The notes under the pieces were generated by a model that saw nothing but the letters and a program-made list of their open reading frames with translations, searched no databases and was not told where the DNA came from. DNA of 64,000 nucleotides from Nitrospirota bacterium. GTDB taxonomy: Bacteria > Nitrospirota > UBA9217. The position numbers and the translations under genes were made by a program. Shown here one piece after another: positions 42,080 to 56,060 of the stretch (positions within the stretch are counted from its first letter, which is position 1; each line of letters starts with the position of its first letter). Location: assembly GCA_963754875.1 (NCBI GenBank), contig CAVWHO010000016.1:544001-608000 (forward strand). The letters are read 5' to 3'.

Positions 42080-42856
42080 ATGAAATGGGACGCAGAGAAG
42101 TACGACGCGGTAAAAGCGCCGCAGATCGAAGCTGGCAAGGAGCTCATGTCCCTGGCCGGGATTCGTGAAAACGATGCAATTCTTGACCTCGGCTGCGGCA
42201 CCGGCAAGCTTACCAAGGAACTCGCGCATCTCGCTTCGAAGGGAGTTGTGGTGGGCATTGATCCGTCCGAGGAAATGCTCGAAAAAGCAAGGGTAGCCGC
42301 GTCACACACCGGCAATATGACGGTACTCCGGGCCGCGGCCGAGGAAATTAATTTTCTCGACAAGTTCGACCTGGCCTTTTCAAATTCCTCCATGCAATGG
42401 GTAAAGGACCAGCCCAAGGCAGCAGCCACGGCTTATCGAGCGCTTAAGCAAGGCGGCAGAATCGCATTTCAGTTTCCTGCGGCGAACTTTTGTGCGGAAT
42501 TCTTCGATTCGGTGGACGGGGCGATATCCATGCTGGGATATGACCGTTTCTTCGAGGGATGGCAGTCGCCCTGGCGGTTTCCCTCAAAGGAAGAGTATGA
42601 ATCAATGCTGAACCGGGCGGGCTTCAGAGCTCTCAATGTTTTTTACAAGAAATATCGAGTCGGTTTCGGAACTATTCCCGATGTCATGATCTGGTGGTCT
42701 TCGGCAGGATTGCGGCCCTATCTCGCGGCTCTGCCCGAAGGAGCACAAGAGCATTTTAAAGAGGCTTTTGCAGAAGGATTCAAGCGGAACAAAACCGATG
42801 CAGGAATCGAGTTCGATTTCAGGAGATTGTTCGCTTTGGCGAAAAAGGAAATATAA
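42080..42856 (+). CDS. Class I SAM-dependent methyltransferase (trans-aconitate methyltransferase-like)
   Basis: WDAEKY, ILDLGCGTG, GIDPSEEML, FSNSSMQWV. Confidence 0.88.
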   Translation: MKWDAEKYDAVKAPQIEAGKELMSLAGIRENDAILDLGCGTGKLTKELAHLASKGVVVGIDPSEEMLEKARVAASHTGNMTVLRAAAEEINFLDKFDLAFSNSSMQWVKDQPKAAATAYRALKQGGRIAFQFPAANFCAEFFDSVDGAISMLGYDRFFEGWQSPWRFPSKEEYESMLNRAGFRALNVFYKKYRVGFGTIPDVMIWWSSAGLRPYLAALPEGAQEHFKEAFAEGFKRNKTDAGIEFDFRRLFALAKKEI

Positions 42857-42957
42857 CCACGTTCTCGCAGAATGCGCGGGACGCACGGATTAAGGCAGTT
42901 TAGTGGAATTCACATCGTATTCTTTACTGTGTGTCCGCGAAGCGGACCCGCGGTTAA
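42855..42957. repeat. Intergenic palindromic element (TAACCAC...GCGGTTA) related to 58496-58575
   Basis: Terminal inverted repeats with internal mini-hairpins such as gtccgc-gaa-gcggac. Confidence 0.5.
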
Positions 42958-42998
42958 TCAGGTTTTGACAAAACGCTTTTCCGGATAAGGAGACTACC

Positions 42999-44705
42999 AT
43001 GAAAACAATGCCTGCCCACAAATACAAACCCTTTCCCCCCGTCGCTCTGCCCGATCGTACCTGGCCGTCAAAAAACATAAAAACCGCGCCCACTTGGTGC
43101 AGCGTGGACTTGCGGGACGGGAACCAGGCGCTCGTTGTCCCGATGGGCGTCGAAGAGAAGCTGAAGATGTTTCAAATGCTCGTGGACATGGGGTTTAAGG
43201 AGATCGAGGTCGGATTTCCCTCGGCGTCGCAGATCGAGTACGACTTTGTCCGCATTCTGATCGAGAAACACCTCGTGCCCGATGACGTCACGCTCCAGGT
43301 GCTTACGCAGGCACGGGAACACCTGATCAGGAGGACCGTTGAATCTCTGCGCAACTCGCGCAGGGCAATCGTGCACCTGTATAACTCGACCTCGGAACTT
43401 CAGCGCAGGGTCGTTTTCCGCATGGGCAGGAAAGAGATCATCGAACTCGCTGTTGCCGGCGCACGGCTGATCAAAGAAGAGACCTCAAAGCTCGCGGACA
43501 CGGATTTTATCTTTGAATATTCACCCGAGAGCTTTACCGGCACGGAGCTCGACTTCGCGCTCGAGATCTGTGAAGCAGTAACTGATGTCTGGCAGCCGAC
43601 CTTGCACAGAAAAGTAATTCTCAACCTGCCGGCAACGGTCGAGATGTCAACGCCGAATGTTTATGCAGACCAGATCGAGTGGTTCAGCAGACACCTGCGG
43701 GACCGTGAATCTGTTGTGGTGAGTGTCCATGCGCATAATGATCGCGGCACCGGCGTGGCGGCAACAGAACTTGCGCTCCTGGCAGGCGCGGAACGCGTCG
43801 AGGGCACGCTCTTCGGGAACGGCGAGCGCACAGGCAACGTGGACCTGGTGACACTGGCGATGAACCTGTGCTCACAGGGTATTGACCCGAAACTGGACTT
43901 CCACGACATCGGCAGGATCATTGCCATGTACGAGCAATGCACCAGGCTCAATGTCCACGCGCGGCACCCCTATGCCGGAGAGCTTGTGTACACGGCTTTT
44001 TCTGGGTCTCATCAGGACGCTATCAACAAAGGCATGAAGGCGCGTGAAAAGGAACAATTCGGTTGCTGGGAGGTGCCTTATCTGCCGATCGATCCGAGTG
44101 ACGTGGGACGGACATTCGAGAATGTCATCAGAATCAACAGCCAATCCGGCAAAGGCGGCGTTGCCTATATCATGGAGAAGGAATATGGCTATTCCCTTCC
44201 CCGGGAAATGCATGCCGAATTCAGCCGCATGATCCAGGCGATCTCGGAAAAAACCGGAAAGGAAGTCCGGCCCGATGTCATGTGGGAGACTTTTGAACAA
44301 GAATATTTAAAGAAGACTGCACCGCTCGCTCTCAAGAGCTGCCACATTGACGAGAAGCCTGCGGGCAAGCATAACGATAATGTACGCGGCGCAACGATAC
44401 AGGCCTGTATCGTGATGAACGAAAGAGAGCACGACATAACAGGCACTGGCAACGGACCGATCGACGCTTTCTGTAAGGCGCTCAGGAGTGCGCTTAAGCT
44501 CGACTTCGATATCACGGCTTACTACGAACACGCGCTGGAGCAAGGGTCAGACTCGAAGGCCGTTGCCTACATTCAAGTTCGGGACAGGAACGACAATTTC
44601 GTGTTCGGCGCAGGCGTGGACACCAATATATCGATTGCATCGCTCAGGGCAGTCATGAGCGCCTTGAATAGATTGCCGAGTCTCACAATGGGGGGAACGA
44701 AGTGA
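42999..44705 (+). CDS. leuA: 2-isopropylmalate synthase (LeuA type 2, actinobacterial/yeast-like)
   Basis: WCSVDLRDGNQAL, EYSPESF, HAHNDRG, GNGERTGN, AFSGSHQDAI, GNGPIDA regulatory domain. Confidence 0.96.
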   Translation: MKTMPAHKYKPFPPVALPDRTWPSKNIKTAPTWCSVDLRDGNQALVVPMGVEEKLKMFQMLVDMGFKEIEVGFPSASQIEYDFVRILIEKHLVPDDVTLQVLTQAREHLIRRTVESLRNSRRAIVHLYNSTSELQRRVVFRMGRKEIIELAVAGARLIKEETSKLADTDFIFEYSPESFTGTELDFALEICEAVTDVWQPTLHRKVILNLPATVEMSTPNVYADQIEWFSRHLRDRESVVVSVHAHNDRGTGVAATELALLAGAERVEGTLFGNGERTGNVDLVTLAMNLCSQGIDPKLDFHDIGRIIAMYEQCTRLNVHARHPYAGELVYTAFSGSHQDAINKGMKAREKEQFGCWEVPYLPIDPSDVGRTFENVIRINSQSGKGGVAYIMEKEYGYSLPREMHAEFSRMIQAISEKTGKEVRPDVMWETFEQEYLKKTAPLALKSCHIDEKPAGKHNDNVRGATIQACIVMNEREHDITGTGNGPIDAFCKALRSALKLDFDITAYYEHALEQGSDSKAVAYIQVRDRNDNFVFGAGVDTNISIASLRAVMSALNRLPSLTMGGTK

Positions 44706-45602
44706 GTAGTACCACCGCCTTAATCGGACCGGGCAGGGCCAGGGTCATTACCGCACTCCTCACGCTGTACCTCGCCTGGAGCTCCACGTACCTCGCGATA
44801 CGGATCTCGCTCGAAGAGTTTCCCGCCGCTTTTCATTGCAGGGTCTCGGTACATGCTGGTCGGGGCAGGAATGTATCTCTATTTGCGCTGGAAAGGCGTG
44901 CCGTCGCCGGTCAGGCCGCAATGGCTCGCCTCATTAACAGTCGGCGCCTTTCTGCTCCTCGGCGGGACAGGAGGAGTTGTGTATGCCGAACAGTGGGTGG
45001 GGTCGGGCGTTGCCGCTCTCGTGCTCGCGACCACGCCGCTCTGGACCGTACTGTTCGCCGGCATATGGAAACAGTGGCCTGCGCGGCATGAGTGGATCGG
45101 TCTAGCCCTCGGCCTCGCGGGCATTCTCCTCCTGAACGTAGAAGGCGATCTGCATGCCCATCCCGCGGGTGCAATCCTTCTTGTCCTGTCCGCTGCTTCG
45201 TGGTCGTTCGGGTCCGTGCTGAGCCTGCGTCTGCCCCTTCCCTCGGGGATGATGGCAAGCGCGGCGCAGATGTTCAGCGGCGGATTGCTGGTGCTCGTTG
45301 TCGGCTTTGCTTCTGGAGAGCGTATCCCGACGCACCCGTCCATGCGGGCCTTGGGGGCGATGGTGTATCTCGCTATCTTCGGCTCGCTTCTGGGATACAC
45401 TGCTTACACATATTTGTTGAAGAACGTCCGCCCCGCTCTTGCAACCAGCTACGCCTACGTGAACCCCGCCCTTGCGGTGGTGCTCGGGATCTGGCTCGCT
45501 GATGAGACAGTGAACGCAATTGGTGTCATTGCAATGCTCACGATCCTTGCCGGGGTCATACTGGTCATAGCAGGACAGCGGCGATTGAGAGTGACGCCAT
45601 GA
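44702..45602 (+). CDS. EamA/YedA-like drug/metabolite exporter; one extra base near 44819-44824
   Basis: LYLAWSSTYLAIR...EF, continuing in the +1 frame as PPLFIAGSRYM...SGVAAL...ATSYAYVNP. Confidence 0.85.
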
Positions 45603-45675
45603 CCGGCTATGTTGATTGTGGACTGCATCAATATGGTTTTGGCTGAGAGAATGCCTGGCTGAGGAGACTGAACAT

Positions 45676-46419
45676 ATGGATTTGGACGAGATACGACAGA
45701 GGATCGACCAAGTCGATTCAGAGATAATCGCGCTTCTTTCTCAGCGCGCCAAGCTGGTCAGCGCGGCGGGTCAACTGAAAAAGAACAAAGAAGGCGTCCG
45801 GGACGGAAAGCGCGTCGAACAGGTGATCGAGCGGGTAAAGGCAAGGGCTGCCCAGGCAGGACTCTCACCGCATATTGCCGAGAAGGTCTACCGGACCATC
45901 GTCAAGTGTTTCATCGAGAAGGAACTGCAGGAGTACACTAACCTGCTCGACCGGACACTCACCGATGACATACGCCTAGCATCGGAAACGGACGCGGCGG
46001 AGATACTGGAAATACAGAAGGCGGCCTTTCACGGGCAAGGCATTTTGTATAACGACATGACGCTGCCGCCCCTGGTCCAGACTTTGGGCGAACTGGTACA
46101 GGATTTCAAGCACCATTCTTTCCTGAAAGCGCTTTGCGACGGACAGATCGTGGGATCAGTGAGAGGCCGCGTTGAGGGGGACACGTGCCATGTTTCACGC
46201 TTGATCGTGAGGCCGGATTATCAAAACAGGGGCATCGGGAAAAAGCTGATGCTTGCCGTTGAAAACGAATTCAGCAGTGTGCAGCGTTACGAGCTGTTCA
46301 CCGGGCACAAGAGCGAAAGGAACATTGCTTTATACGAAAAACTCGGATATCGCAAATACGGTGAAAAGCCCCAGGGTGATACTGTACTCTTGTTCTGCAT
46401 GGAAAAATGGACAGCCTGA
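45676..46419 (+). CDS. Chorismate mutase (AroQ)-like domain fused to a GNAT acetyltransferase
   Basis: LDEIRQRIDQVDSEIIALLSQR...VRD..R; then RLIVRPDYQNRGIGKKL...LYEKLGY. Confidence 0.85.
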   Translation: MDLDEIRQRIDQVDSEIIALLSQRAKLVSAAGQLKKNKEGVRDGKRVEQVIERVKARAAQAGLSPHIAEKVYRTIVKCFIEKELQEYTNLLDRTLTDDIRLASETDAAEILEIQKAAFHGQGILYNDMTLPPLVQTLGELVQDFKHHSFLKALCDGQIVGSVRGRVEGDTCHVSRLIVRPDYQNRGIGKKLMLAVENEFSSVQRYELFTGHKSERNIALYEKLGYRKYGEKPQGDTVLLFCMEKWTA

Positions 46420-46573
46420 ACCCCCTTTTATATTCAGGGAGCATAATAGACGATGACCGTTTATTGAGGCACGCCTAACTTTTGCAATACACGTTTGTTT
46501 TTTTCTCGATTTCTGATACACTCGAACTCACAGCACAGGCTGTTGGCTTTTACAATGCATGAGGGAAAATCAA

Positions 46574-47764
46574 ATGGACAGCATCTTTTCCGACAGCATT
46601 ACCGACGTTCCCCGTTCGTTCATCCGTGAAATCCTCAAGGTCGCACTCGATCCTGCGGTCATTTCTTTTGCCGGCGGCCTTCCGAACAGGCAGCTGTTCC
46701 CTGCCAGGGAGCTGAAGGCGGCGACGGACAAGGTATTCGCTTTTCACGGGAATGATATTTTTCAGTACAGCAACTCAGAAGGATATCTGAAGCTGAGAGA
46801 ATATATTGCCGGGCGCTACCGGCAGACGAAGAAGCTCGACATCCCGGTCGAAGACATCCTGATCACCAGCGGCTCTCAACAAGGGCTGGACCTTTTGGGC
46901 AAGATCCTCCTGAACAAAGGCGACAGTGTGGTCATCGAAGAGCCCGGCTATTTGGGGGCGATCCAGGCCTTTTCGATTTACAAGCCGAAGTTTCTCCCGG
47001 TACTCGTTTCTGAGCAGGGAATGGACACACAGCGGCTGCGGCGCGGCCTCGCCTCGGAGAAGCCGAAACTGATGTACACGGTCCCGAATTTCCAAAATCC
47101 CTCAGGTATCTCGTATTCGAATGAAAATAGGGCCGAAGTTTCGGAAATCCTTCGTAGCACAAAAACGCTCCTGATCGAAGACGACCCTTACGGCGAGTTG
47201 CGGTTCTCAGGACAACGCAAACAATCGTTCAAGGAACTGCTGCCCGACAACACGATCCTCTTGGGTTCTTTTTCGAAAACGATTGTACCCGGGTTCAGGC
47301 TGGGATGGATCGCGGCCCCGAAATATATTATGGACAAGCTGATCATTGCAAAGCAGGCTTCCGATCTTCACACGAGCCATTTTACGCAGAGCATCATTTA
47401 CCACTATTTGCGCGACAATGATGTTGACGCACATATAGAAAAAATCCGGGATGCCTACGGGAGGCAATGCAGGGCAATGCTCAACAGTATCGGAAAGCAT
47501 TTTCCTCAGAACGTAAAGCATACGAAGCCCGAGGGTGGCATGTTCCTCTGGGCCGAATTACCGCAGAACGCTGCAGCGCTCGATTTGTTTGATCTGGCGG
47601 TAAAAGACAAAGTCATTTTTGTTCCTGGGGACCCCTTCTACGTCAACAAAACACGAACAAGTACTATGCGCTTGAATTTTTCCTGCGTTGATGAAGAAAC
47701 AATAGAAGTCGGCATTGGCCGGTTGGGCAATGCAATTCGCGAACTCTTACAAAATACGAAATAG
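46574..47764 (+). CDS. PLP-dependent class I aminotransferase (LysN/Aro8-like)
   Basis: SFIREILK, ISFAGGLP, PNFQNPSG, EDDPYG, GSFSKTIVPGFRLGW, MRLNFS. Confidence 0.93.
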   Translation: MDSIFSDSITDVPRSFIREILKVALDPAVISFAGGLPNRQLFPARELKAATDKVFAFHGNDIFQYSNSEGYLKLREYIAGRYRQTKKLDIPVEDILITSGSQQGLDLLGKILLNKGDSVVIEEPGYLGAIQAFSIYKPKFLPVLVSEQGMDTQRLRRGLASEKPKLMYTVPNFQNPSGISYSNENRAEVSEILRSTKTLLIEDDPYGELRFSGQRKQSFKELLPDNTILLGSFSKTIVPGFRLGWIAAPKYIMDKLIIAKQASDLHTSHFTQSIIYHYLRDNDVDAHIEKIRDAYGRQCRAMLNSIGKHFPQNVKHTKPEGGMFLWAELPQNAAALDLFDLAVKDKVIFVPGDPFYVNKTRTSTMRLNFSCVDEETIEVGIGRLGNAIRELLQNTK

Positions 47765-47783
47765 GCGGCTGCGAGGAGAAAGT

Positions 47784-48341
47784 ATGAATTCCGCATTGGT
47801 GCTGGTTGATATTCAACAGGACTATTTTCCGAAGGGGAGGATGGAAGTAGTCGGAGCTGTCGAAGCAAGCCAAGCCGCCAAAAGGCTTTTGGATTTTTTT
47901 AGAACGAAAAAATTGCCGATTGTCCATATCCAGCATATTTCCACGCGGCCGGGCGCTACATTTTTCCTGCCGAATACGGAGGGGATACACTTGCACGAAA
48001 GCGTCTCGCCTTTGCCCGACGAAACAATTGTTAAAAAACATTTCCCGAACAGTTTCAGGGATACGCATCTGCAGGAATATCTTCTTTCGCAAGAGATCAA
48101 GGACCTGGTGATCTGCGGGATGATGTCTCATATGTGTATTGACGCAACCGTTCGGGCGGCCTTCGACAAAGGGTATCAATGTATGGTTGCTCACGATGCC
48201 TGTGCAGCGAGAAGCCTGGCTTTTCATGGTTCCAATATCCCCGCGAGTAACGTCCACGGGGCGTATATGGCCGCCTTGGGTGCAGTTTTTGCGAAGGTAG
48301 CAAGTGCGAACGACATCATGGGGATGCTCGGCGACACGTAA
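47784..48341 (+). CDS. Isochorismatase-family cysteine hydrolase
   Basis: ALVLVDIQQDYF, KHFPNSF, GMMSHMCIDATVR. Confidence 0.92.
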   Translation: MNSALVLVDIQQDYFPKGRMEVVGAVEASQAAKRLLDFFRTKKLPIVHIQHISTRPGATFFLPNTEGIHLHESVSPLPDETIVKKHFPNSFRDTHLQEYLLSQEIKDLVICGMMSHMCIDATVRAAFDKGYQCMVAHDACAARSLAFHGSNIPASNVHGAYMAALGAVFAKVASANDIMGMLGDT

Positions 48342-48370
48342 TCAGGCTGTCGAAAAAGGAGGGGCCACGA

Positions 48371-49030
48371 ATGTCCGTAAAAAAGTATATCGTGATATCG
48401 CTCGTGGCGATTGTTGTTATTCTCGCCGTGATCGTCTTCGCTATCATGAAGAAATTTTTTACGCCAACCAAGGGTGCGAAAATCGCCGCCTACGCCAACC
48501 CGCAAAAAGCCCTCCTGGTCATCGACGTTCAGGAAGACTATACCGGGCTCAGAGGCAAGCAGCCTAGCCTGTATAAGAACGTTGAGCCGCAGATCGCGGT
48601 CATCAACACACTTATCGACAAGGCGTCGAAGTCGGGAGCCAGGGTGATCTATATCCGCCAGATCTTTGACGACAACTTCATTACTCGGCTTCTTGGGGGC
48701 CGGGCCATCGAGAGCAAGCCGGGAACGGAAGTCGACTCGAGAATAAACGTGGTAAGTCGCAACGATTTCACAAAGAAGTTTTCCGACGCTTTTTCAAACC
48801 GGCAATTGGACGAGTTCCTCATCCGGAATCAGGTAAACGAGCTGTATCTGGTGGGACTGGACGCTGCCTATTGCGTTCACAACACCGCCAGGGGCGCCCT
48901 TAACCGGGGGTACAAAGTAAAGATCGTCAAGGACGCGATCATAACCCGCATAGACATGAGCGACATCCTGAAGCAATACGAGCAGGAAGGTATTTTAGTG
49001 ACTTCGAGCGCGGAATTCGCGGATAGGTAA
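48371..49030 (+). CDS. Isochorismatase-family cysteine hydrolase with an N-terminal membrane anchor
   Basis: Hydrophobic N-terminus, ALLVIDVQED, KKFSDAF, GLDAAYCV. Confidence 0.88.
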   Translation: MSVKKYIVISLVAIVVILAVIVFAIMKKFFTPTKGAKIAAYANPQKALLVIDVQEDYTGLRGKQPSLYKNVEPQIAVINTLIDKASKSGARVIYIRQIFDDNFITRLLGGRAIESKPGTEVDSRINVVSRNDFTKKFSDAFSNRQLDEFLIRNQVNELYLVGLDAAYCVHNTARGALNRGYKVKIVKDAIITRIDMSDILKQYEQEGILVTSSAEFADR

Positions 49031-49116: not shown

Positions 49117-49563
49117 ATGAACTACGAAGAGCTCAAAAAAATTCTTGCACCCTGCGGCCTGAACTGCATGAAGTGCCAGATGTACAGCGACGGCGACATC
49201 AAGCGGCATTCAGTGGAGCTGCGAAGGCTGCTGGGCTCCTTCGACAGCTATGCGGAGCGGTTTTCAAAATTCCTTTCCGTGTATCAGAACTATCCCGCGT
49301 TCAAGGAACTGCTCGCCCACTTCAGCCAAGCCGGCTGCAAAGGATGCCGCAAGGGTGACTGCAAATATCCGAACTGCGGGGTGGCGACATGCTACAAGCA
49401 GAAGGGCGTTGATTTCTGTTTTCAGTGTAAGGACTTCCCCTGTGACAAGTCCAACTTCGACCCTAACCTCCATGAGCGATGGGTCAGGATGAACCGTCGT
49501 ATGAAGGAGCTCGGCGTTGAAGCGTATTACGAAGCGACGAAAGACCAGCCGCGATACGCGTAA
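49117..49563 (+). CDS. DUF3795-type Cys-rich protein, paralogue 1
   Basis: APCGLNCMKC...CKGCR...C...C...KGVDFCFQCKDFPC. Confidence 0.85.
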   Translation: MNYEELKKILAPCGLNCMKCQMYSDGDIKRHSVELRRLLGSFDSYAERFSKFLSVYQNYPAFKELLAHFSQAGCKGCRKGDCKYPNCGVATCYKQKGVDFCFQCKDFPCDKSNFDPNLHERWVRMNRRMKELGVEAYYEATKDQPRYA

Positions 49564-49628
49564 GTCATACGACTTCACTTCAGTGAACCCTGTCCGGCAC
49601 CTGAGCAATACGTAACGAGGTGTTACCC

Positions 49629-50411
49629 ATGTCCGATAAGCACTCAGAACTTTTCGATCAATTATACTGCGACAATCAGCCAAAGGTATATAGACTCGCC
49701 TTGTCGCTTGCCGGTAATGCGCACGACGCCGAGGACATAACTCAGGAGGCATTTTTCCGCGCTTTTCGCGCCTATGAAACCTTTCGCAATGAGAGCTCTT
49801 TTTTCACCTGGATCTATCGAATCGCCCTGAACGTTGCCAATGACCATCTGAAATATCGAAGCAAGCTGCCCTACCAGTCTTTGACCGAAGACCAGGGTTA
49901 CTCTTTCGAAGAGGTCATCGACATGAATCCTGCGAACAATCCTGAAACCGAGCTTCTTGCTTACCAAGTCAGGATCAAATGCCTTCATGCCTTGACGGAG
50001 TGCCTGCAGGCGAACGAGCGAAAGGTCTTTTGCCTGGCCGTCACCCTGGACCTGCCGCACAAACAAATTGCCGAAATCCTGGAATGTTCCGTCGGCTCCG
50101 TCAAAACAACGCTGCACCGGGCCAGGAAAAGGTGGTTCGGCTACATGGAAAACATGTGCCAGTTCCTCAAGAAATCCAATCCCTGCAACTGCAAGCAGTA
50201 CGTACGCTTCGCCCTTTCTAAGGGCCTGATCTCAAAAAACCTCGCCGTCGATCCCCGCCCGCCGAGAATCATGCAGGCCAAAAAAGAAGTCATTAACCTG
50301 CGGACGATCCGTGATTTCTACCAGGACCTTTACCGGGAACATGCAGACGATTCGTTTGCGCAAAGAATCAGGGACGGCATACGGAATAAAGAATGGACGA
50401 TTCTTTCCTGA
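49629..50411 (+). CDS. ECF sigma factor with a Cys-containing C-terminal extension
   Basis: Region 2 DAEDITQEAF...FFTWIYRIALN; region 4 KQIAEILECSVGSVKTTLHRAR; tail MCQFLKKSNPCNC. Confidence 0.92.
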   Translation: MSDKHSELFDQLYCDNQPKVYRLALSLAGNAHDAEDITQEAFFRAFRAYETFRNESSFFTWIYRIALNVANDHLKYRSKLPYQSLTEDQGYSFEEVIDMNPANNPETELLAYQVRIKCLHALTECLQANERKVFCLAVTLDLPHKQIAEILECSVGSVKTTLHRARKRWFGYMENMCQFLKKSNPCNCKQYVRFALSKGLISKNLAVDPRPPRIMQAKKEVINLRTIRDFYQDLYREHADDSFAQRIRDGIRNKEWTILS

Positions 50412-50419
50412 TTTATTTT

Positions 50420-50448
50420 TGTAACCTTTCCCCTCCGGGCCGGTCTAA
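50420..50448 (+). promoter_or_regulatory. ECF-sigma-type promoter, copy 2
   Basis: TGTAACCTTTC-N12-GTCTAA immediately after the sigma gene and about 30 bp before the next ATG (AAGGAGG RBS). Confidence 0.75.
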
Positions 50449-50479
50449 CTGACAGATAACCCAAAAGGAGGATTTTTTC

Positions 50480-50911
50480 ATGAAGACAAAAGACGACATC
50501 TCCCTCGTCGCGCCCTGCGGAATGCACTGCGGAGCCTGCCCGATGTACAAGGTTAAGGATGATCCGTCCCTGCGGGAAGCGCTGGTCAAGAGGATAAACT
50601 GGAACGGCATTCCCTGTTCGGGGTGCAGACCAGGCAAGGGACATAACCAGTTTATCGAGGGAACATGCCCGACGTACGGCTGCGCGACCGGACGAGGGCG
50701 CGACTTCTGTTTTGAATGCAAGGATTTCCCCTGTGCAAAATTGAATCCGGCGTCCGACAGGGCGGATGTCCTGCCGCACAACCTGAAGATATTCAACCTG
50801 AGCTTCATCAAACAGCACGGGGTGGCCAAGTACCTGGAAAAAGAACCCGAGATCAAGCAAAGATATTACCGCGGCAAGATGGTGATCGGCAAAGGGCCGC
50901 AACTCGGGTAG
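50480..50911 (+). CDS. DUF3795-type Cys-rich protein, paralogue 2
   Basis: APCGMHCGAC...CSGCR...CPTYGC...DFCFECKDFPC. Confidence 0.87.
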   Translation: MKTKDDISLVAPCGMHCGACPMYKVKDDPSLREALVKRINWNGIPCSGCRPGKGHNQFIEGTCPTYGCATGRGRDFCFECKDFPCAKLNPASDRADVLPHNLKIFNLSFIKQHGVAKYLEKEPEIKQRYYRGKMVIGKGPQLG

Positions 50912-51004
50912 ATCGGCTCCTATCACAAGAACGCTGCCATCTTGATGAAAATCGAAGAGATTTGCCGGCGATAATCAATAAATGTATTGTTATAAGGAGG
51001 AGCC

Positions 51005-51436
51005 ATGAAAGACAAAAAGGCTTTGACGGCGCCGTGCGGTTTGGCCTGTTTCCTTTGCGATTTCTACGAGGATAATTTGACAGACGAAGTCGCTGAATTA
51101 ACGCACCTCAAATTCGGCGTGCCAAAAAAAGAAATACCCTGCAAGGGCTGCCGCGGGCAGGACGGGAAGCATTTCCATCTTCCGCACGGGTGCGCAACTC
51201 TGGACTGTGTCAAAGCCAAGGGGGTTACCTTGTGCTGTGAATGTAATGATTTTCCGTGTGCCTTTCTCGCGCCGACGGCGGACAAAGCCGCACACTTACC
51301 TCACAACACAAAACTTTACAATCTTTGCCGTATCAAGAAGATGGGGCTTGAACGCTGGATCGAGGAAGAAGCAGGCCAGATACGAGAAAAATATTTTACC
51401 GGAAAATTTGTCATGGGAAGAGGTCAGGCTGATTAA
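51005..51436 (+). CDS. DUF3795-type Cys-rich protein, paralogue 3
   Basis: APCGLACFLC...CKGCR...CATLDC...LCCECNDFPC. Confidence 0.87.
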   Translation: MKDKKALTAPCGLACFLCDFYEDNLTDEVAELTHLKFGVPKKEIPCKGCRGQDGKHFHLPHGCATLDCVKAKGVTLCCECNDFPCAFLAPTADKAAHLPHNTKLYNLCRIKKMGLERWIEEEAGQIREKYFTGKFVMGRGQAD

Positions 51437-51501
51437 GATGCTTCCGGAATATTGAACAAGAGCCATTATCAATAGCATTGGCCCTACGAAGGAGATCAGC
51501 G

Positions 51502-51811
51502 ATGGCCGAGATACTGGAAGTTTTCGTTCATTCCACGAATCAAAAACTGGGTTATATTGGGAGAGCAAAGTCTAATGCTCCGATCGTTATGGACTACACG
51601 CCTCCGCTCGGTGATGGGCAGGGTTATATGCCCCTTGAGCCCCACGTCATTCCGGAAAATTTTTCTCGCCTTTGAGCTCCAGTCCAAAGATGCCGTGGAT
51701 GCAGACGTGCAGAAAGCGCTCAAGCTTGCCGAAGACTCGGTCTGCGCCGTATGGGCCATGGTAAAAGGCAACGTTGAAATTGTGACCGAATACAAGATGA
51801 TGAAGTCGTAA
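51502..51811 (+). pseudogene. OsmC-family gene with an internal out-of-frame deletion near 51640
   Basis: N-part MDYTPPLGDGQGYMPLE joins out of frame to PTSFRKIF...KLAEDSVCAVWAMVKG; the central helix carrying the first Cys is missing. Confidence 0.75.
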
Positions 51812-51821
51812 CAAGTCATTC

Positions 51822-51905
51822 TCACACGAAGATCACAAAAGACACAAAGAAAAACCTTAAGTGTTTTCAAGCGGCATTTCTTCGTGTCGTTGTGCCGACC
51901 TGTGA
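51822..51905. repeat. Intergenic palindromic element with 9-bp-periodic arms
   Basis: tcacacgaagatcacaaaagacacaaagaa ... ttcttcgtgtcgttgtgccgacctgtga. Confidence 0.55.
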
Positions 51906-51967
51906 AATTTTGACTTCTTTCGAGACCATCACGATAGTCGCTGCATGAGGAAAGGACGGTCCAGGTT

Positions 51968-52495
51968 ATGAAAGAAATAAACAAAAACATACGTGTCCCG
52001 GACAAGCGGCTTGCCGCGGTCTGCGGCTTGTTTTGTCCTGCTTGCCGCGTCTTCATCGGAACGAAAGAAGAGCCCGAAAGGCTCAAGGCGATGGCCCTTC
52101 GTTTTCAAAAGCCTATTAAAGAAATGCACTGTAACGGCTGCCGGTCGGAGAAGCGCTGCTTTTACTGCGAGAGCAAGTGTACCATGGCAAAGTGCGCAGC
52201 GGCAAAAGGCGTCGACTTTTGCGGCGAATGTGTGGAATACCCTTGTTCAAATTTGAAAGTGTTTCAAGCGGAGATGCCGCATCGCATCGAGTTGTGGCAA
52301 TCCCAGGCGCGCATTAAGGAAGTGGGATACGAAAAATGGTATTCGGAGATGATCGAGCACTATTCCTGCCAAAAATGCGGGACCCTGAATTCAGCCTATG
52401 ACATAGCCTGTAGGAAATGCGGGGCAACACCGAGCTGTTCGTATGTAAGGCTCCATAAGGATAAAATCATGCAGCATCTTGCCAAAATGAAATGA
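51968..52495 (+). CDS. DUF3795-type Cys-rich protein, paralogue 4, with a C-terminal zinc ribbon
   Basis: AVCGLFCPAC...CNGCR...KGVDFCGECVEYPC...CQKCG...CRKCG. Confidence 0.87.
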   Translation: MKEINKNIRVPDKRLAAVCGLFCPACRVFIGTKEEPERLKAMALRFQKPIKEMHCNGCRSEKRCFYCESKCTMAKCAAAKGVDFCGECVEYPCSNLKVFQAEMPHRIELWQSQARIKEVGYEKWYSEMIEHYSCQKCGTLNSAYDIACRKCGATPSCSYVRLHKDKIMQHLAKMK

Positions 52496-53454: not shown

Positions 53455-54030
53455 TCACGGGGGCAGCATCTTCTCGATACGTCGGTCCGGGACCAGCCAC
53501 ATGATTGCGACAAGAACATACAGCCCGCATGCGATCCATGAACTAAAAAATGCCAGAGGAATCGCCGCAGCGTAGATAACGACCGATACCTTGCCTTTGA
53601 AATCCCGGCCGACTGCTTCGGCCAGAACGGATTCCCTGCCGTGGAGTGCAATAAGAGTACGGGTCAGGATGAAGTAGGCGATCGCGGCAAAGAGCAGGAC
53701 CACGCCATACAACGCAACAGGCCACGGTGCGAAGTTATTCTCGCCCGTCCAGCCGGTCACGAACGGAACGAGAGACAGCCAGAACAGGAGATGCAGGTTC
53801 GCCCAGAGCACGCGGCCGTCGACGTGCTTGATGGCCTGAAGCAGGTGGTGATGATTGCTCCAGTAGATGCCGAGGAAGATGAAACTCAGCACATAACTTA
53901 GGAACACCGGCGCCAAAGGGACGAGGGCCTCCCACCGTGCTTCACGCGGGATTTTCAGTTCGAGCACCATGATGGTGATGAGGATCGCGATCACACCATC
54001 GCTGAATGCTTCCATGCGTCCTTTGCTCAT
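53455..54030 (-). CDS. TMEM175-family K+ channel (DUF1211)
   Basis: RMEAFSDGVIAILITIMVLE, YWSNHHH. Confidence 0.93.
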   Translation of the reverse strand: MSKGRMEAFSDGVIAILITIMVLELKIPREARWEALVPLAPVFLSYVLSFIFLGIYWSNHHHLLQAIKHVDGRVLWANLHLLFWLSLVPFVTGWTGENNFAPWPVALYGVVLLFAAIAYFILTRTLIALHGRESVLAEAVGRDFKGKVSVVIYAAAIPLAFFSSWIACGLYVLVAIMWLVPDRRIEKMLPP

Positions 54031-54245: not shown

Positions 54246-54274
54246 TTGACACCCCCCTTATTTTCAGGTATATC
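54246..54274 (+). promoter_or_regulatory. sigma70 promoter of the hgc operon
   Basis: TTGACA-17bp-TATATC (or TATCTT at 19 bp). Confidence 0.6.
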
Positions 54275-54316
54275 TTACCTATCTGATTAATCTGATTATG
54301 CGGATATTCCGGAGAA

Positions 54317-54604
54317 ATGATGACAACGACTAAAAAAGCCAAAATCCCCATGGCCGGACCTTTCGGCAAAGGTGCAAGCTGCTGCGCCGTCGAGGCGCTC
54401 GTGACCGTTGACGAGCGGGGCCAGATGGTGCTCCCCAAGGAGCTCCGCGCAAAGGCGGGCATCAAGGCCGGCGACAAGCTGGCCGTGACGAGCTGGGAAA
54501 AAGACGGGAAGATCTGCTGCATCGCCCTCATCAAGGCGGACAACCTCGAGGGTATGGTTAAAGTAATGCTCGGGCCGGTGATGGGCGACATCCTCAATAA
54601 ATGA
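54317..54604 (+). CDS. HgcAB-associated AbrB/MazE/SpoVT-fold protein
   Basis: SCCAVEALVTVDERGQMVLPKELRAKAGIKAGDKL...ICC; directly upstream of hgcA. Confidence 0.85.
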   Translation: MMTTTKKAKIPMAGPFGKGASCCAVEALVTVDERGQMVLPKELRAKAGIKAGDKLAVTSWEKDGKICCIALIKADNLEGMVKVMLGPVMGDILNK

Positions 54605-54684
54605 ACCTGCACGGCATCGAGTTCAGAATAAAGGATTTGAAACTAATGTGATTTGAACTTTCTTGTGTCAATCGAGGTGATCCC

Positions 54685-55770
54685 ATGCAGATGCAAACTC
54701 TCAAATTTGTTAAAAAAGAAGTCCCGCCGTATTCTACTGGCGCGGTGAGTACCCCTGCGGGCAGCGTCTTTCGTGTTTCTTCGGACTGGTCCCGCGCTGA
54801 CTACTGGGGCATGATCAAAAGCCGCAGCGGCGCTTTCCGGATGAATTATGCCGTAGCACCGGGACTCTATGCAATAGGCGATCCCACGAAGGAGTCCGAT
54901 GTTTTCGTGAGCGCCAACTACAAACTGAGTTTCGACATCCTCCGCCGCGAATTGAAAGGCATGAATGCGTGGGTCCTCGTGCTCGACACCAAGAGCATCA
55001 ACGTCTGGTGCGCAGCAGGCAAAGGGACTTTCGGCACTGATGAATTGATCGGCCGCATAGCATCAACAAAACTCGAGGCCGTAATCAGCCACCGAAGGGT
55101 CATCGTGCCCCAGCTCGGCGCGGTCGGCGTAAACGCTGCAGAAGTCCAGAAGAAGACGGGTTTCCGGGTTTCCTTCGGCCCTGTTCAGGCAAGAGACATT
55201 CCTTTATATATTGAAGCAGACTATAAGAAAACAAAAGAAATGAGCACGATCCAATTCCCGATGATGGACCGCCTTGTTCTTACTCCTATGGAAATCAACC
55301 CCGCGATGAAAATGTTTCCCTGGTTTGCCGGCGCTGTGCTCATCCTGTTCGGGCTTCAACCTTCAGGTATCCTTTTTAAAAGCGCGTGGTCCGGGGGCTT
55401 GCCTATTCTCGTTCTCGGCCTCATCACTGTGCTGGCGGGTGCATTCCTGACGCCTGTGCTGCTTCCTTTTATTCCGTTTCGTTCGTTCGCGATCAAGGGA
55501 TGGATCATGGGCCTCCTGTCCATGCTGGCTGTTGTACCGTTTCTCGCACCGGCTGTCCGGGGCGAGATCCTGCTACTCGTTGCATCCTGGATCTTCTTCC
55601 CTGCCATGAGCTCCTATATCGCGCTCCAGTTCACCGGCTCAACGACCTTTACCGGCATGTCGGGCGTCAAGAAAGAATTGAAGATCGGAATTCCTCTATA
55701 TTTAACGGCTGCGGGCATTTCGATCGTTCTTTTGCTGGTCTACAAGATCAGGGAATGGGGGATTGTATGA
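54685..55770 (+). CDS. hgcA: Mercury methylation corrinoid protein HgcA
   Basis: PGLY, ANYKLSFD, cap helix INVWCAAGKGTF, VPQLGA, C-terminal TM helices ending FTGSTTFTGMSGVKKE. Confidence 0.97.
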   Translation: MQMQTLKFVKKEVPPYSTGAVSTPAGSVFRVSSDWSRADYWGMIKSRSGAFRMNYAVAPGLYAIGDPTKESDVFVSANYKLSFDILRRELKGMNAWVLVLDTKSINVWCAAGKGTFGTDELIGRIASTKLEAVISHRRVIVPQLGAVGVNAAEVQKKTGFRVSFGPVQARDIPLYIEADYKKTKEMSTIQFPMMDRLVLTPMEINPAMKMFPWFAGAVLILFGLQPSGILFKSAWSGGLPILVLGLITVLAGAFLTPVLLPFIPFRSFAIKGWIMGLLSMLAVVPFLAPAVRGEILLLVASWIFFPAMSSYIALQFTGSTTFTGMSGVKKELKIGIPLYLTAAGISIVLLLVYKIREWGIV

Positions 55771-56060
55771 AGTATCTCGCGAATGTGACAACGCTTCAGT
55801 ATGCATCGGACAAGTGCGCCGGCTGCGGCAGGTGCGTCGAGGTCTGCCCGCAAGGCGTGTTCGAGATGCGCGACAAGCGTGCTACGATCACGGACAAGGA
55901 CCTGTGCATGGAATGCGGTGCCTGCGCCAAGAACTGCGATTTCGGCGCGCTTTCGGTCAATGCAGGCGTGGGCTGCGCAGCTGCGATCATTACCGGCCTG
56001 CTTACGGGCAGCGAACCCACGTGCGGGTGCAGCGATACTGCCTCAGGAAGCTGCTGCTGA
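55767..56060 (+). CDS. hgcB: Mercury methylation ferredoxin HgcB
   Basis: CAGCGRCVEVCP, CMECGACAKNC, GVGCA, C-terminal CGC...CC; ATGA overlap with the hgcA stop. Confidence 0.97.
   Translation: MKYLANVTTLQYASDKCAGCGRCVEVCPQGVFEMRDKRATITDKDLCMECGACAKNCDFGALSVNAGVGCAAAIITGLLTGSEPTCGCSDTASGSCC

Follow-up and report, generated by a model that had tools for sequence, protein, structure and literature searches.

Gene organization and the sigma factor

We analysed a locus in a 64,000-nt stretch of DNA (hereafter the window) from a Nitrospirota bacterium (GTDB lineage Bacteria; Nitrospirota; UBA9217; assembly GCA_963754875.1, contig CAVWHO010000016.1, positions 544,001 to 608,000 of the forward strand), where the gene for an extracytoplasmic function (ECF) sigma factor stands among four genes for cysteine-rich proteins of the DUF3795 family. 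All features of the locus lie on the plus strand in the order D1 (49117..49563, 148 aa), sigma gene (49629..50411, 260 aa), D2 (50480..50911, 143 aa), D3 (51005..51436, 143 aa), an OsmC/YhfA-like pseudogene (51502..51811) and D4 (51968..52495, 175 aa). A first-pass annotation had proposed a metal- or thiol-stress system in which a sigma factor that senses through its own cysteines induces metallothionein-like proteins, with a possible link to mercury through the nearby hgc operon. Much of the underlying description stood up to comparison with relatives, as detailed below, and the thiol-stress part of the proposal survives as a possible response to thiol-reactive electrophiles; the metal part found no support, since none of 79 loci had a recognizable metal-handling gene as its first cargo.

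The four DUF3795 paralogues scored 64.4 (D1), 65.3 (D2), 65.6 (D3) and 63.9 bits (D4) against a gathering score of 22.6 for Pfam PF12675. They are 26-39% identical in pairwise comparisons and share ten cysteines, which were invariant in 45/45 aligned relatives. D4 carries an extra C-terminal zinc-ribbon-like CxxC pair (weak Zn_ribbon match). The sigma gene is surrounded by the paralogues, as first described, with the qualification that D1 lies upstream of the predicted sigma promoter, outside its reach, and varies in position among relatives, being 5´ of the sigma gene in only some (L081, L083, L085/L087) and 3´ of it in L004 and L009. The OsmC/YhfA-like sequence, which gave weak matches to Pfam OsmC and NCBIfam PRK10738, is a decayed gene, as had been suspected: DNA alignment with the intact gene of locus L005 revealed a 119-nt deletion, with the first cysteine motif gone and the frame shifted. 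Intact OsmC-like genes were present in L001, L002, L004, L005 and L010, and an intact paralogue of the pseudogene was found elsewhere on the same contig.

The sigma factor consists of sigma2 (Pfam PF04542, sigma70_r2, residues 13-78), sigma4 (PF08281, r4_2, residues 117-168) and a 92-residue tail, and also scored above the cut-off of TIGR02937; with sigma2 and sigma4 and without sigma3, it is an ECF (group 4) sigma factor. Its cysteines are C118, C125 and C135 at the start of sigma4, C153 within sigma4, and C177, C186 and C188 in the tail. Both KCLHALTEC and MCQFLKKSNPCNC are present in the protein, and the tail motif C-x8-CxC reads CQFLKKSNPCNC, with the consensus CQLIKKSNPCNC. The KCLHALTEC cysteines had been assigned to the linker; they exist, but fall where the Pfam sigma4 match begins and do not form a linker CxC of the CorE type. 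All of the 120 database proteins closest to the sigma factor have C118, C125, C135, C177 and C186, and 119/120 have C188. Among 77 non-redundant full-length copies from our loci, C118 and the three tail cysteines, on whose conservation the first-pass proposal depended, were kept in every one (77/77), C125 in 76, C153 in 72 and C135 in 70. A profile search with the sigma tail yielded 58 representatives among 1.84 billion, and in the 23 of length 230-340 aa that were used for distant comparison, C118, C177, C186 and C188 were again invariant (23/23), with C125 in 20/23 and C135 in 4/23. Four to five cysteines are thus the core of a wider superfamily.

No anti-sigma gene was conserved in the neighbourhood of the relatives, as the first-pass annotation had anticipated from the window; the first genes behind the sigma gene encode soluble cargo, and the upstream genes vary. 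Relatives of the sigma factor occur in Nitrospirota, Thermodesulfobacteriota, Calditrichota, Ignavibacteriota and Bacillota. Of 64 genomes of the same family, 10 encode the sigma tail, with 11 copies in all. The genome under study has a second copy of the sigma gene (contig C20, ~413900-416400, minus strand), which is 73% identical and is followed by an identical promoter; the D2 gene there carries a frameshift and an inserted transposase gene (IS630-like by eye).

A predicted promoter dedicated to the sigma factor

Eight nt past the sigma stop codon, where an ECF-type promoter had been proposed, lies the predicted target promoter of the sigma factor, TGTAACC-N16-GTCTAAC (50420..50449, plus strand), a pattern that matched in 0/100 shuffles of the window. 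Using a promoter matrix trained on the GTDB sites of 32 relatives, with the studied genome left out, we found that the top two scores in this genome (26.4) were the sites behind its two sigma copies, and that five shuffled genomes contained no site scoring at least 22. The exact pattern occurred 10 times in the 64 family genomes, every time directly behind this sigma gene, and was absent from the 54 family genomes without the sigma factor, compared with one match for the reversed pattern used as a control. The eleventh family sigma copy has a promoter with a one-base variant. These 10/10 exact matches bear out the claim that the promoter aimed at D2 to D4 is specific to the sigma factor. Across 85 non-redundant copies, a set that includes the 32 training sites and whose held-out metagenome loci partly overlap them, a matrix site of at least 16 followed the sigma stop codon in 78 and one of at least 13 in 80, while a promoter of this type was found at 0/44 control ECF loci.

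We found no indication of autoregulation: the motif is absent upstream of the sigma gene in the window, and none faces the sigma gene in 36 loci. With no copy of the motif directed at the sigma gene, and with different genes upstream of it in different loci, the sigma factor is predicted to be made by read-through from upstream and to own a private promoter at its stop codon, with a regulon of one operon. From these sequence comparisons, it is highly probable that the sigma factor reads this promoter, comes from read-through and is controlled after translation.

A wider regulon in this genome was considered and set aside, as the remaining sites score like those of shuffled genomes: the next matrix matches (at most 20.5) are within the shuffle range, each of the five shuffles holding at most one site of at least 20. 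Two sites scoring 19.8, on contigs C15 and C17, resemble the promoter of another ECF gene on C7 and were assigned there by eye. These ECF-type sites (C15:31865, C17:106189 and C7:185319) read TGTAACC-N16-CGTCT(A/T)AT and precede genes for paralogous Met/Gly-rich secreted proteins and for another ECF sigma factor with an apparent anti-sigma; one Met/Gly-rich protein gene is near a copper-type P-ATPase gene (label by eye). They are probably a separate regulon. We also noted in a Sporomusa genome (G066) an identical 28-bp sequence that fits a loose form of the promoter pattern at 13 sites unrelated to the sigma factor, and which probably lies within a repeated element.

Alternative genes behind the promoter in relatives

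The first gene past the sigma stop codon was assigned by script in the 79 non-redundant loci that extend 300 nt or more beyond this codon. It was D2, the commonest cargo, in 31 loci, D3 in nine and D4 in two, and in the others an epoxide hydrolase-like gene (11), a cupin gene (seven), a haloalkane dehalogenase gene (five), a QueG-like gene (five), an OsmC-like gene (one) or a methyltransferase fragment (one), with seven unassigned. Of these seven, one can be recognized by eye as D4 and five lack the promoter past the stop codon, which leaves one without assignment. Including the D4 recognized by eye, DUF3795 is the first gene in 43/79 loci. In two of these five loci the promoter is displaced: in L028 it precedes a QueG-like gene on the opposite strand, and in L095 it is 4 kb off, in front of a DUF3795 gene. 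The co-localisation of DUF3795 with this ECF subfamily, proposed earlier, was evident in 24/36 GTDB loci with DUF3795 behind the sigma gene, compared with 0/44 loci of other ECF sigma factors.

The alternative cargo was assigned as follows. In the epoxide hydrolase-like proteins, the HGFP motif, the Asp nucleophile, two lid Tyr and the catalytic His were invariant in 8/8 aligned sequences, and the best PDB matches were solved epoxide hydrolases (5ng7, E 1e-43 and 5e-37). The haloalkane dehalogenases (PRK03592, NCBIfam NF002938) scored 427-438 bits against a cut-off of 241 in L017, L020, L034 and L036, the cargo above this cut-off amounting to four full genes and one fragment; the catalytic motifs HGNP, HDWG, YMEA and GRHF are kept and LinB-type structures were matched. 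The QueG/RdhA-like FeS proteins, encoded by the first gene in the five loci and present also in one divergent locus, show homology to QueG of solved structure (E 4e-23). Of 301 Geobacter-class genomes, nine encode the hydrolase subfamily, in 9/9 cases behind the sigma gene, and PRK03592 was found in 1/162 Pelotomaculum-class genomes, again behind the sigma gene.

A quick tree of 77 sigma copies placed the dehalogenase in two clades, each with its own support and with sisters that bear DUF3795; the hydrolase marked a third clade, and the QueG-like genes turned up at two more places. In L036 a DUF3795-like start is joined to the dehalogenase, and in L017 a broken DUF3795 start precedes it. The sigma cassette is real and well conserved, and we explain it best as a mobile one-operon switch.

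One explanation for these patterns is that the cysteines are a structural zinc site and that the sigma factor either senses a small molecule by non-covalent binding or acts, free of regulation, as a "promoter trap" for any detoxifying gene that comes to lie behind it, with cargo that reflects general xenobiotic islands. This would be in keeping with the very mixed cargo, with the location of the cassette among isochorismatase-family, GNAT, EamA and methyltransferase genes, and with the sharing of the cysteine core by distant sigma factors, one of which has a different promoter. DUF3795 is also encoded in 44/64 family genomes, mostly without the sigma gene, so that most copies lie outside its regulon. 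However, separate clades recruited three unrelated enzyme families whose members act on electrophiles with C-O or C-halogen bonds, the hydrolase subfamily stands behind the sigma gene in all nine genomes where it was found, and the cargo families were found in 0/79 control ECF loci (these controls being taxonomically different and redundant). We therefore consider this explanation unlikely.

A proposed cysteine switch that may respond to thiol-reactive compounds

The reading that we tentatively favour, giving it as a whole somewhat less than an even chance, is that the sigma factor is self-sensing and is activated by thiol-reactive organic electrophiles. C118 together with C177, C186 and C188 (and C125) would be a metal-thiolate or reactive-thiol site that joins the first and last sigma4 helices to the tail. 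Epoxides, alkyl halides and perhaps organic peroxides would react with this conserved site, its modification would free the sigma factor, and the freed sigma factor would transcribe the genes behind the promoter past its own stop codon. The conserved cysteines may make up one site because of the usual packing of sigma4; in an AlphaFold model of the sigma factor, C118 is in the helix that opens sigma4 and C177 is just past the last sigma4 helix. Thiolates attack both epoxides and alkyl halides. Since three unrelated enzyme families for such bonds were recruited to one promoter, a reaction of the sigma cysteines with the electrophiles would be the simplest account. We hold the cysteine site, the freeing of the sigma factor by its modification and the organic electrophile signal with moderate confidence, on the strength of conservation and cargo. 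For the DUF3795 proteins, we infer weakly that they have a folded metal-thiolate structure and, together with the OsmC-like protein, take up or convert these same compounds, given that hydrolytic and reductive enzymes replace DUF3795 in place. A more far-reaching version, in which this would be the first sigma factor to sense alkylating chemicals directly and DUF3795 a metal-thiolate protein for alkyl capture or transfer, replaceable by the cargo enzymes, seems doubtful to us.

Several observations weigh against the electrophile reading. The commonest cargo, DUF3795, and the seven cupins are without known function, and the signal is deduced from 21/79 loci and about five recruitment events. 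The substrates of the cargo enzymes are those suggested by family membership. With 79-87% identity to one another, the dehalogenases may represent a single mobile gene, and in the Geobacter class PRK03592 was detected in 3/301 genomes, once behind the sigma gene and twice without the sigma gene or its promoter in front. The QueG-like proteins scored 55-136 bits against the TIGR00276 cut-off of 200 and were also under the reductive dehalogenase (RDH) cut-off. Genes further downstream in the cargo, for a nitroreductase, a protein with a metallo-beta-lactamase fold, a flavodoxin-fold reductase and an esterase, fit a broader xenobiotic role. In the sigma model, residues 175-193, which include the CxC region, have pLDDT < 50, so that the model is unreliable there. 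In addition, four of the seven family genomes with both the sigma factor and hgcA have hgcA 3-9 kb downstream of the cassette and in the same orientation, as discussed below. Finally, the OsmC/YhfA cargo and the fusions of OsmC to D4 point equally to peroxides.

This last point leads to the possibility that the switch is a redox one, by which anaerobes answer to oxygen, organic peroxides or disulfide stress; oxidation of a zinc-thiolate would activate the sigma factor, and DUF3795 with OsmC/YhfA would make up a thiol peroxidase or a repair system. The OsmC-like gene is part of the operon in many relatives and is fused to D4 in 5/7 longer DUF3795 matches. YhfA-type proteins retain the two cysteines of Ohr/OsmC peroxidases (PMC8945050), and disulfide control has been proposed for ECF288 sigma factors (PMC7826278). 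The activity of YhfA is, however, described as unproven (PMC8945050). Neither the first genes nor the 81 neighbours covered by the scan included a peroxiredoxin, rubrerythrin, catalase or thioredoxin gene. Moreover, peroxides are not the business of haloalkane dehalogenases or epoxide hydrolases. On balance, we regard a redox switch as unlikely.

The mercury-methylation operon and the metal hypothesis

The hgcC-hgcA-hgcB mercury-methylation operon (54317..56060, plus strand) matched NCBIfam NF040962, NF040863 and NF040864 above cut-off, and the start of hgcC was confirmed 1.8 kb past D4, the distance first reported, with the correction that two opposite-strand genes lie in between. The operon is preceded by a sigma70-like promoter (TTGACA at 54246) and an operator-like repeat (54280-54298), together spanning 54246..54298 on the plus strand. 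The promoter element TTGA[CT] was found in 16/18 hgcC loci and the repeat (consensus TCTGA-TTAA-TC(T/A)GAT) in 15/18. The repeat is a candidate operator for the AbrB-fold HgcC, for which a regulatory role has only been proposed (PMC10349881). No sigma promoter motif was detected upstream of hgcC, and no co-oriented run of genes extends from the cassette to hgcC. Because hgcCAB has its own conserved promoter, reverse genes in between and no sigma motif, we set it apart from the sigma regulon and judge it, from the sequence context, to be a neighbour in a variable island and not a sigma target. One of the features of this interval is a TMEM175-family potassium channel gene (53455-54030, minus strand) directly 5´ of hgcC, which is likewise found in L214 and L220.

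The proximity nevertheless invites the explanation that the sigma factor is CorE-like, with cysteines that would hold a soft metal or metalloid (Hg, As, Cu or Cd), and that it switches on DUF3795 proteins which resemble metallothioneins and serve alongside hgcAB. CorE and CorE2 are activated by metals through cysteine tails, and a similar mechanism has been suggested for ECF287/288 (PMC8999054). The cassette is at most 9 kb upstream of hgcA in four of the seven family genomes with both; the other three have the two on separate contigs in two well-assembled genomes and on separate short contigs in one. Among 31 regions upstream of hgcCAB (28 with hgcA labelled), four held the cassette, four ArsR/Acr3-like genes in the same place (by eye) and two a lone DUF3795 gene, the rest having other genes. 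Control of hgcAB by ArsR is known (10.1101/2022.10.17.512643). We observed ArsR-like and Acr3-like genes (labels by eye) directly 5´ of hgcA in L219, L226, L231 and L234, Nitrospirota genomes without hgcC there.

The wider distribution argues against this explanation. Although hgcA was found in 53/64 family genomes, the sigma factor was found in just 10, of which three, 68-86% complete, gave no hgcA match. The co-localisation with hgcA, which the first-pass annotation had put forward for counting, was seen within the family (4/7) and not elsewhere: hgcA was absent from the flanks (up to 6 kb) of all 28 loci of other phyla. In the 79 loci we identified no first gene for a metal transporter, metal reductase or methylase; a Pfam scan of 81 neighbours returned only an ArsC-family gene, where the promoter is missing, and a more distant MerR regulator, and YHS gave one weak score. 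The alternative cargo is instead epoxide hydrolase-like, dehalogenase, QueG/RdhA-like, cupin and OsmC-like, and hgcC has a promoter and operator-like repeat of its own. With the properties of DUF3795 described below, this makes a metal or mercury role improbable. We read the proximity of cassette and hgcA as a shared insertion site within one family. In 3/4 hgc-linked regions the cassette is accompanied by a block of EamA, methyltransferase, aminotransferase and isochorismatase genes. In the window, 42083-49030 contains methyltransferase, leuA-like and EamA-like genes, a chorismate mutase-GNAT fusion, an aminotransferase gene and two isochorismatase-family genes, a block that accompanies the cassette upstream of hgcCAB in some relatives.

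Properties of the DUF3795 proteins

DUF3795 is common in anaerobic bacteria and archaea. Our literature search found neither a function for it nor its link to the present sigma factor and promoter in print; one DUF3795 protein is listed in proteomics data (PMC12613277).

The proteins were first described as metallothionein-like, a description that we do not uphold. Metallothioneins are very small, have cysteine at about one quarter or more of their residues and lack a stable fold without metal. The DUF3795 proteins of the window, in contrast, are 143-175 aa long, have 10 invariant cysteines (7%) and are predicted to be folded, the AlphaFold model of D2 being helical with a pLDDT of 82. Residues other than cysteine are also conserved (R50, P99, H100 and Y129), and the four subfamilies (D1 to D4 types), which we describe as old, recur separately across phyla. 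Based on the confident model, the conserved non-cysteine residues and the recurring subfamilies, a folded metal-thiolate protein, possibly an enzyme, suits DUF3795 better than a metallothionein. With the D2 model, Foldseek found no PDB match with E < 0.001, and VIA-align against 48,161 chains gave a best Z of 3.3, covering the C-terminal helix only; a DUF3795 profile search of PDB sequences returned 0 matches, and an ESM Atlas search returned just DUF3795 clusters or low scores. These fold searches demonstrate neither a new fold nor a function.

Longer forms of DUF3795 (P0219-P0224, P0215-P0217) include the five OsmC fusions, found with D4 in other organisms, and fusions to an alpha/beta hydrolase, a methyltransferase and PF21805. 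No fusion with a metal-resistance domain was seen among the longer forms found, in a search that is weak for showing absence. The idea that DUF3795 is an obligatory anti-sigma factor was set aside only since many loci have another first gene.

Implications

The subfamily is a clean test system, offering one sigma factor, a 30-bp promoter exclusive to it, a small set of cysteines and cargo that names candidate signals, as well as a concrete lead on the function of DUF3795. It also bears on the cysteine-tailed groups without anti-sigma, ECF287 and ECF288, for which the analogy with CorE is so far the only ground for proposing a metal or disulfide signal; in the literature found, including the parts of the classification used here (Casas-Pastor et al. 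2021, PMC7826278), no member of either group has been studied. If the electrophile reading is true, it would mean a new sensing chemistry for sigma factors, would show how groundwater and sediment anaerobes (Geobacter, Pelotomaculum, Nitrospirota) control defence against halogenated and epoxide compounds, and would provide a compact biosensor part. The analysis also removes a tempting but weak link between the cassette and mercury methylation.

Comparison with known systems

We file the sigma subfamily as a sister of ECF288 and not as a member, judged by the published description of that group and not by its group HMM, because the motif, the gene at position +1, the -35 element and the taxonomy fail to agree. 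Like our subfamily, ECF288 is described as having no anti-sigma, a tail of ~100 aa (92 residues here), several cysteines in sigma4 and tail, a soluble +1 gene product and a -10 element, TGTCTAAT, that is near the GTCTAAC found here (PMC7826278). The differences are the -35 element, TGTAACC here and TGTCACA in ECF288; the tail motif, C-x8-CxC here and CGxxGxGxCxC in ECF288 (PMC7826278); and the +1 gene, which encodes DUF3795, hydrolase, dehalogenase, QueG-like or cupin proteins here and DUF2461 in ECF288. Consistent with this, 72/79 first genes belong to other families (one more by eye), and DUF2461 was not among the 81 neighbours scanned. While ECF288 is described from Firmicutes only, the sigma factors here span Nitrospirota, Thermodesulfobacteriota, Bacillota and others. 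An ECF288-like sigma factor in genome G016 (L303/L331, G016:C103:12467-13607) aligns at C118, C125, C177, C186 and C188, and its gene is followed directly past the stop codon by TGTCACA...TGTCTAA, which agrees with the ECF288 consensus, and then by DUF3795, with a CGGC-domain gene 5´ of it. Three more family relatives of this ECF288-like sigma factor were found. Our literature search returned no paper on the present subfamily or its promoter, although the supplementary tables of the classification (PMC7826278), only partly covered, could hold a group assignment.

CorE and CorE2 of Myxococcus xanthus (former ECF44, ECF238) likewise have no anti-sigma and are thought to be controlled by their own cysteine-bearing tails (PMC8999054, PMC7826278). 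The CorE tail is, however, ~20 aa long and is combined with a linker CxC, whereas the tail here is 92 aa long with three cysteines and the linker CxC is missing; CorE signals are Cu, Cd or Zn, whereas no metal-resistance cargo was seen here. No conserved cysteine was found between residues 79 and 117 of the sigma factor.

For the proposed chemistry, the N-terminal domain of Ada is a model, in which alkylation of a zinc-bound cysteine switches on a transcription activator. The methyl groups sensed by Ada come from DNA, and it is a model for the chemistry only, not being a sigma factor. An example closer to the cargo is CifR of Pseudomonas aeruginosa, which needs Cys107 for epoxide sensing and controls the gene for the epoxide hydrolase Cif (10.1101/2024.01.16.572601). 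CifR belongs to the TetR repressors and senses through one cysteine, whereas here an activating sigma factor with a multi-cysteine site would control interchangeable cargo. No homology is claimed, and we take CifR-Cif as a working analogy for the Geobacter-class cassettes.

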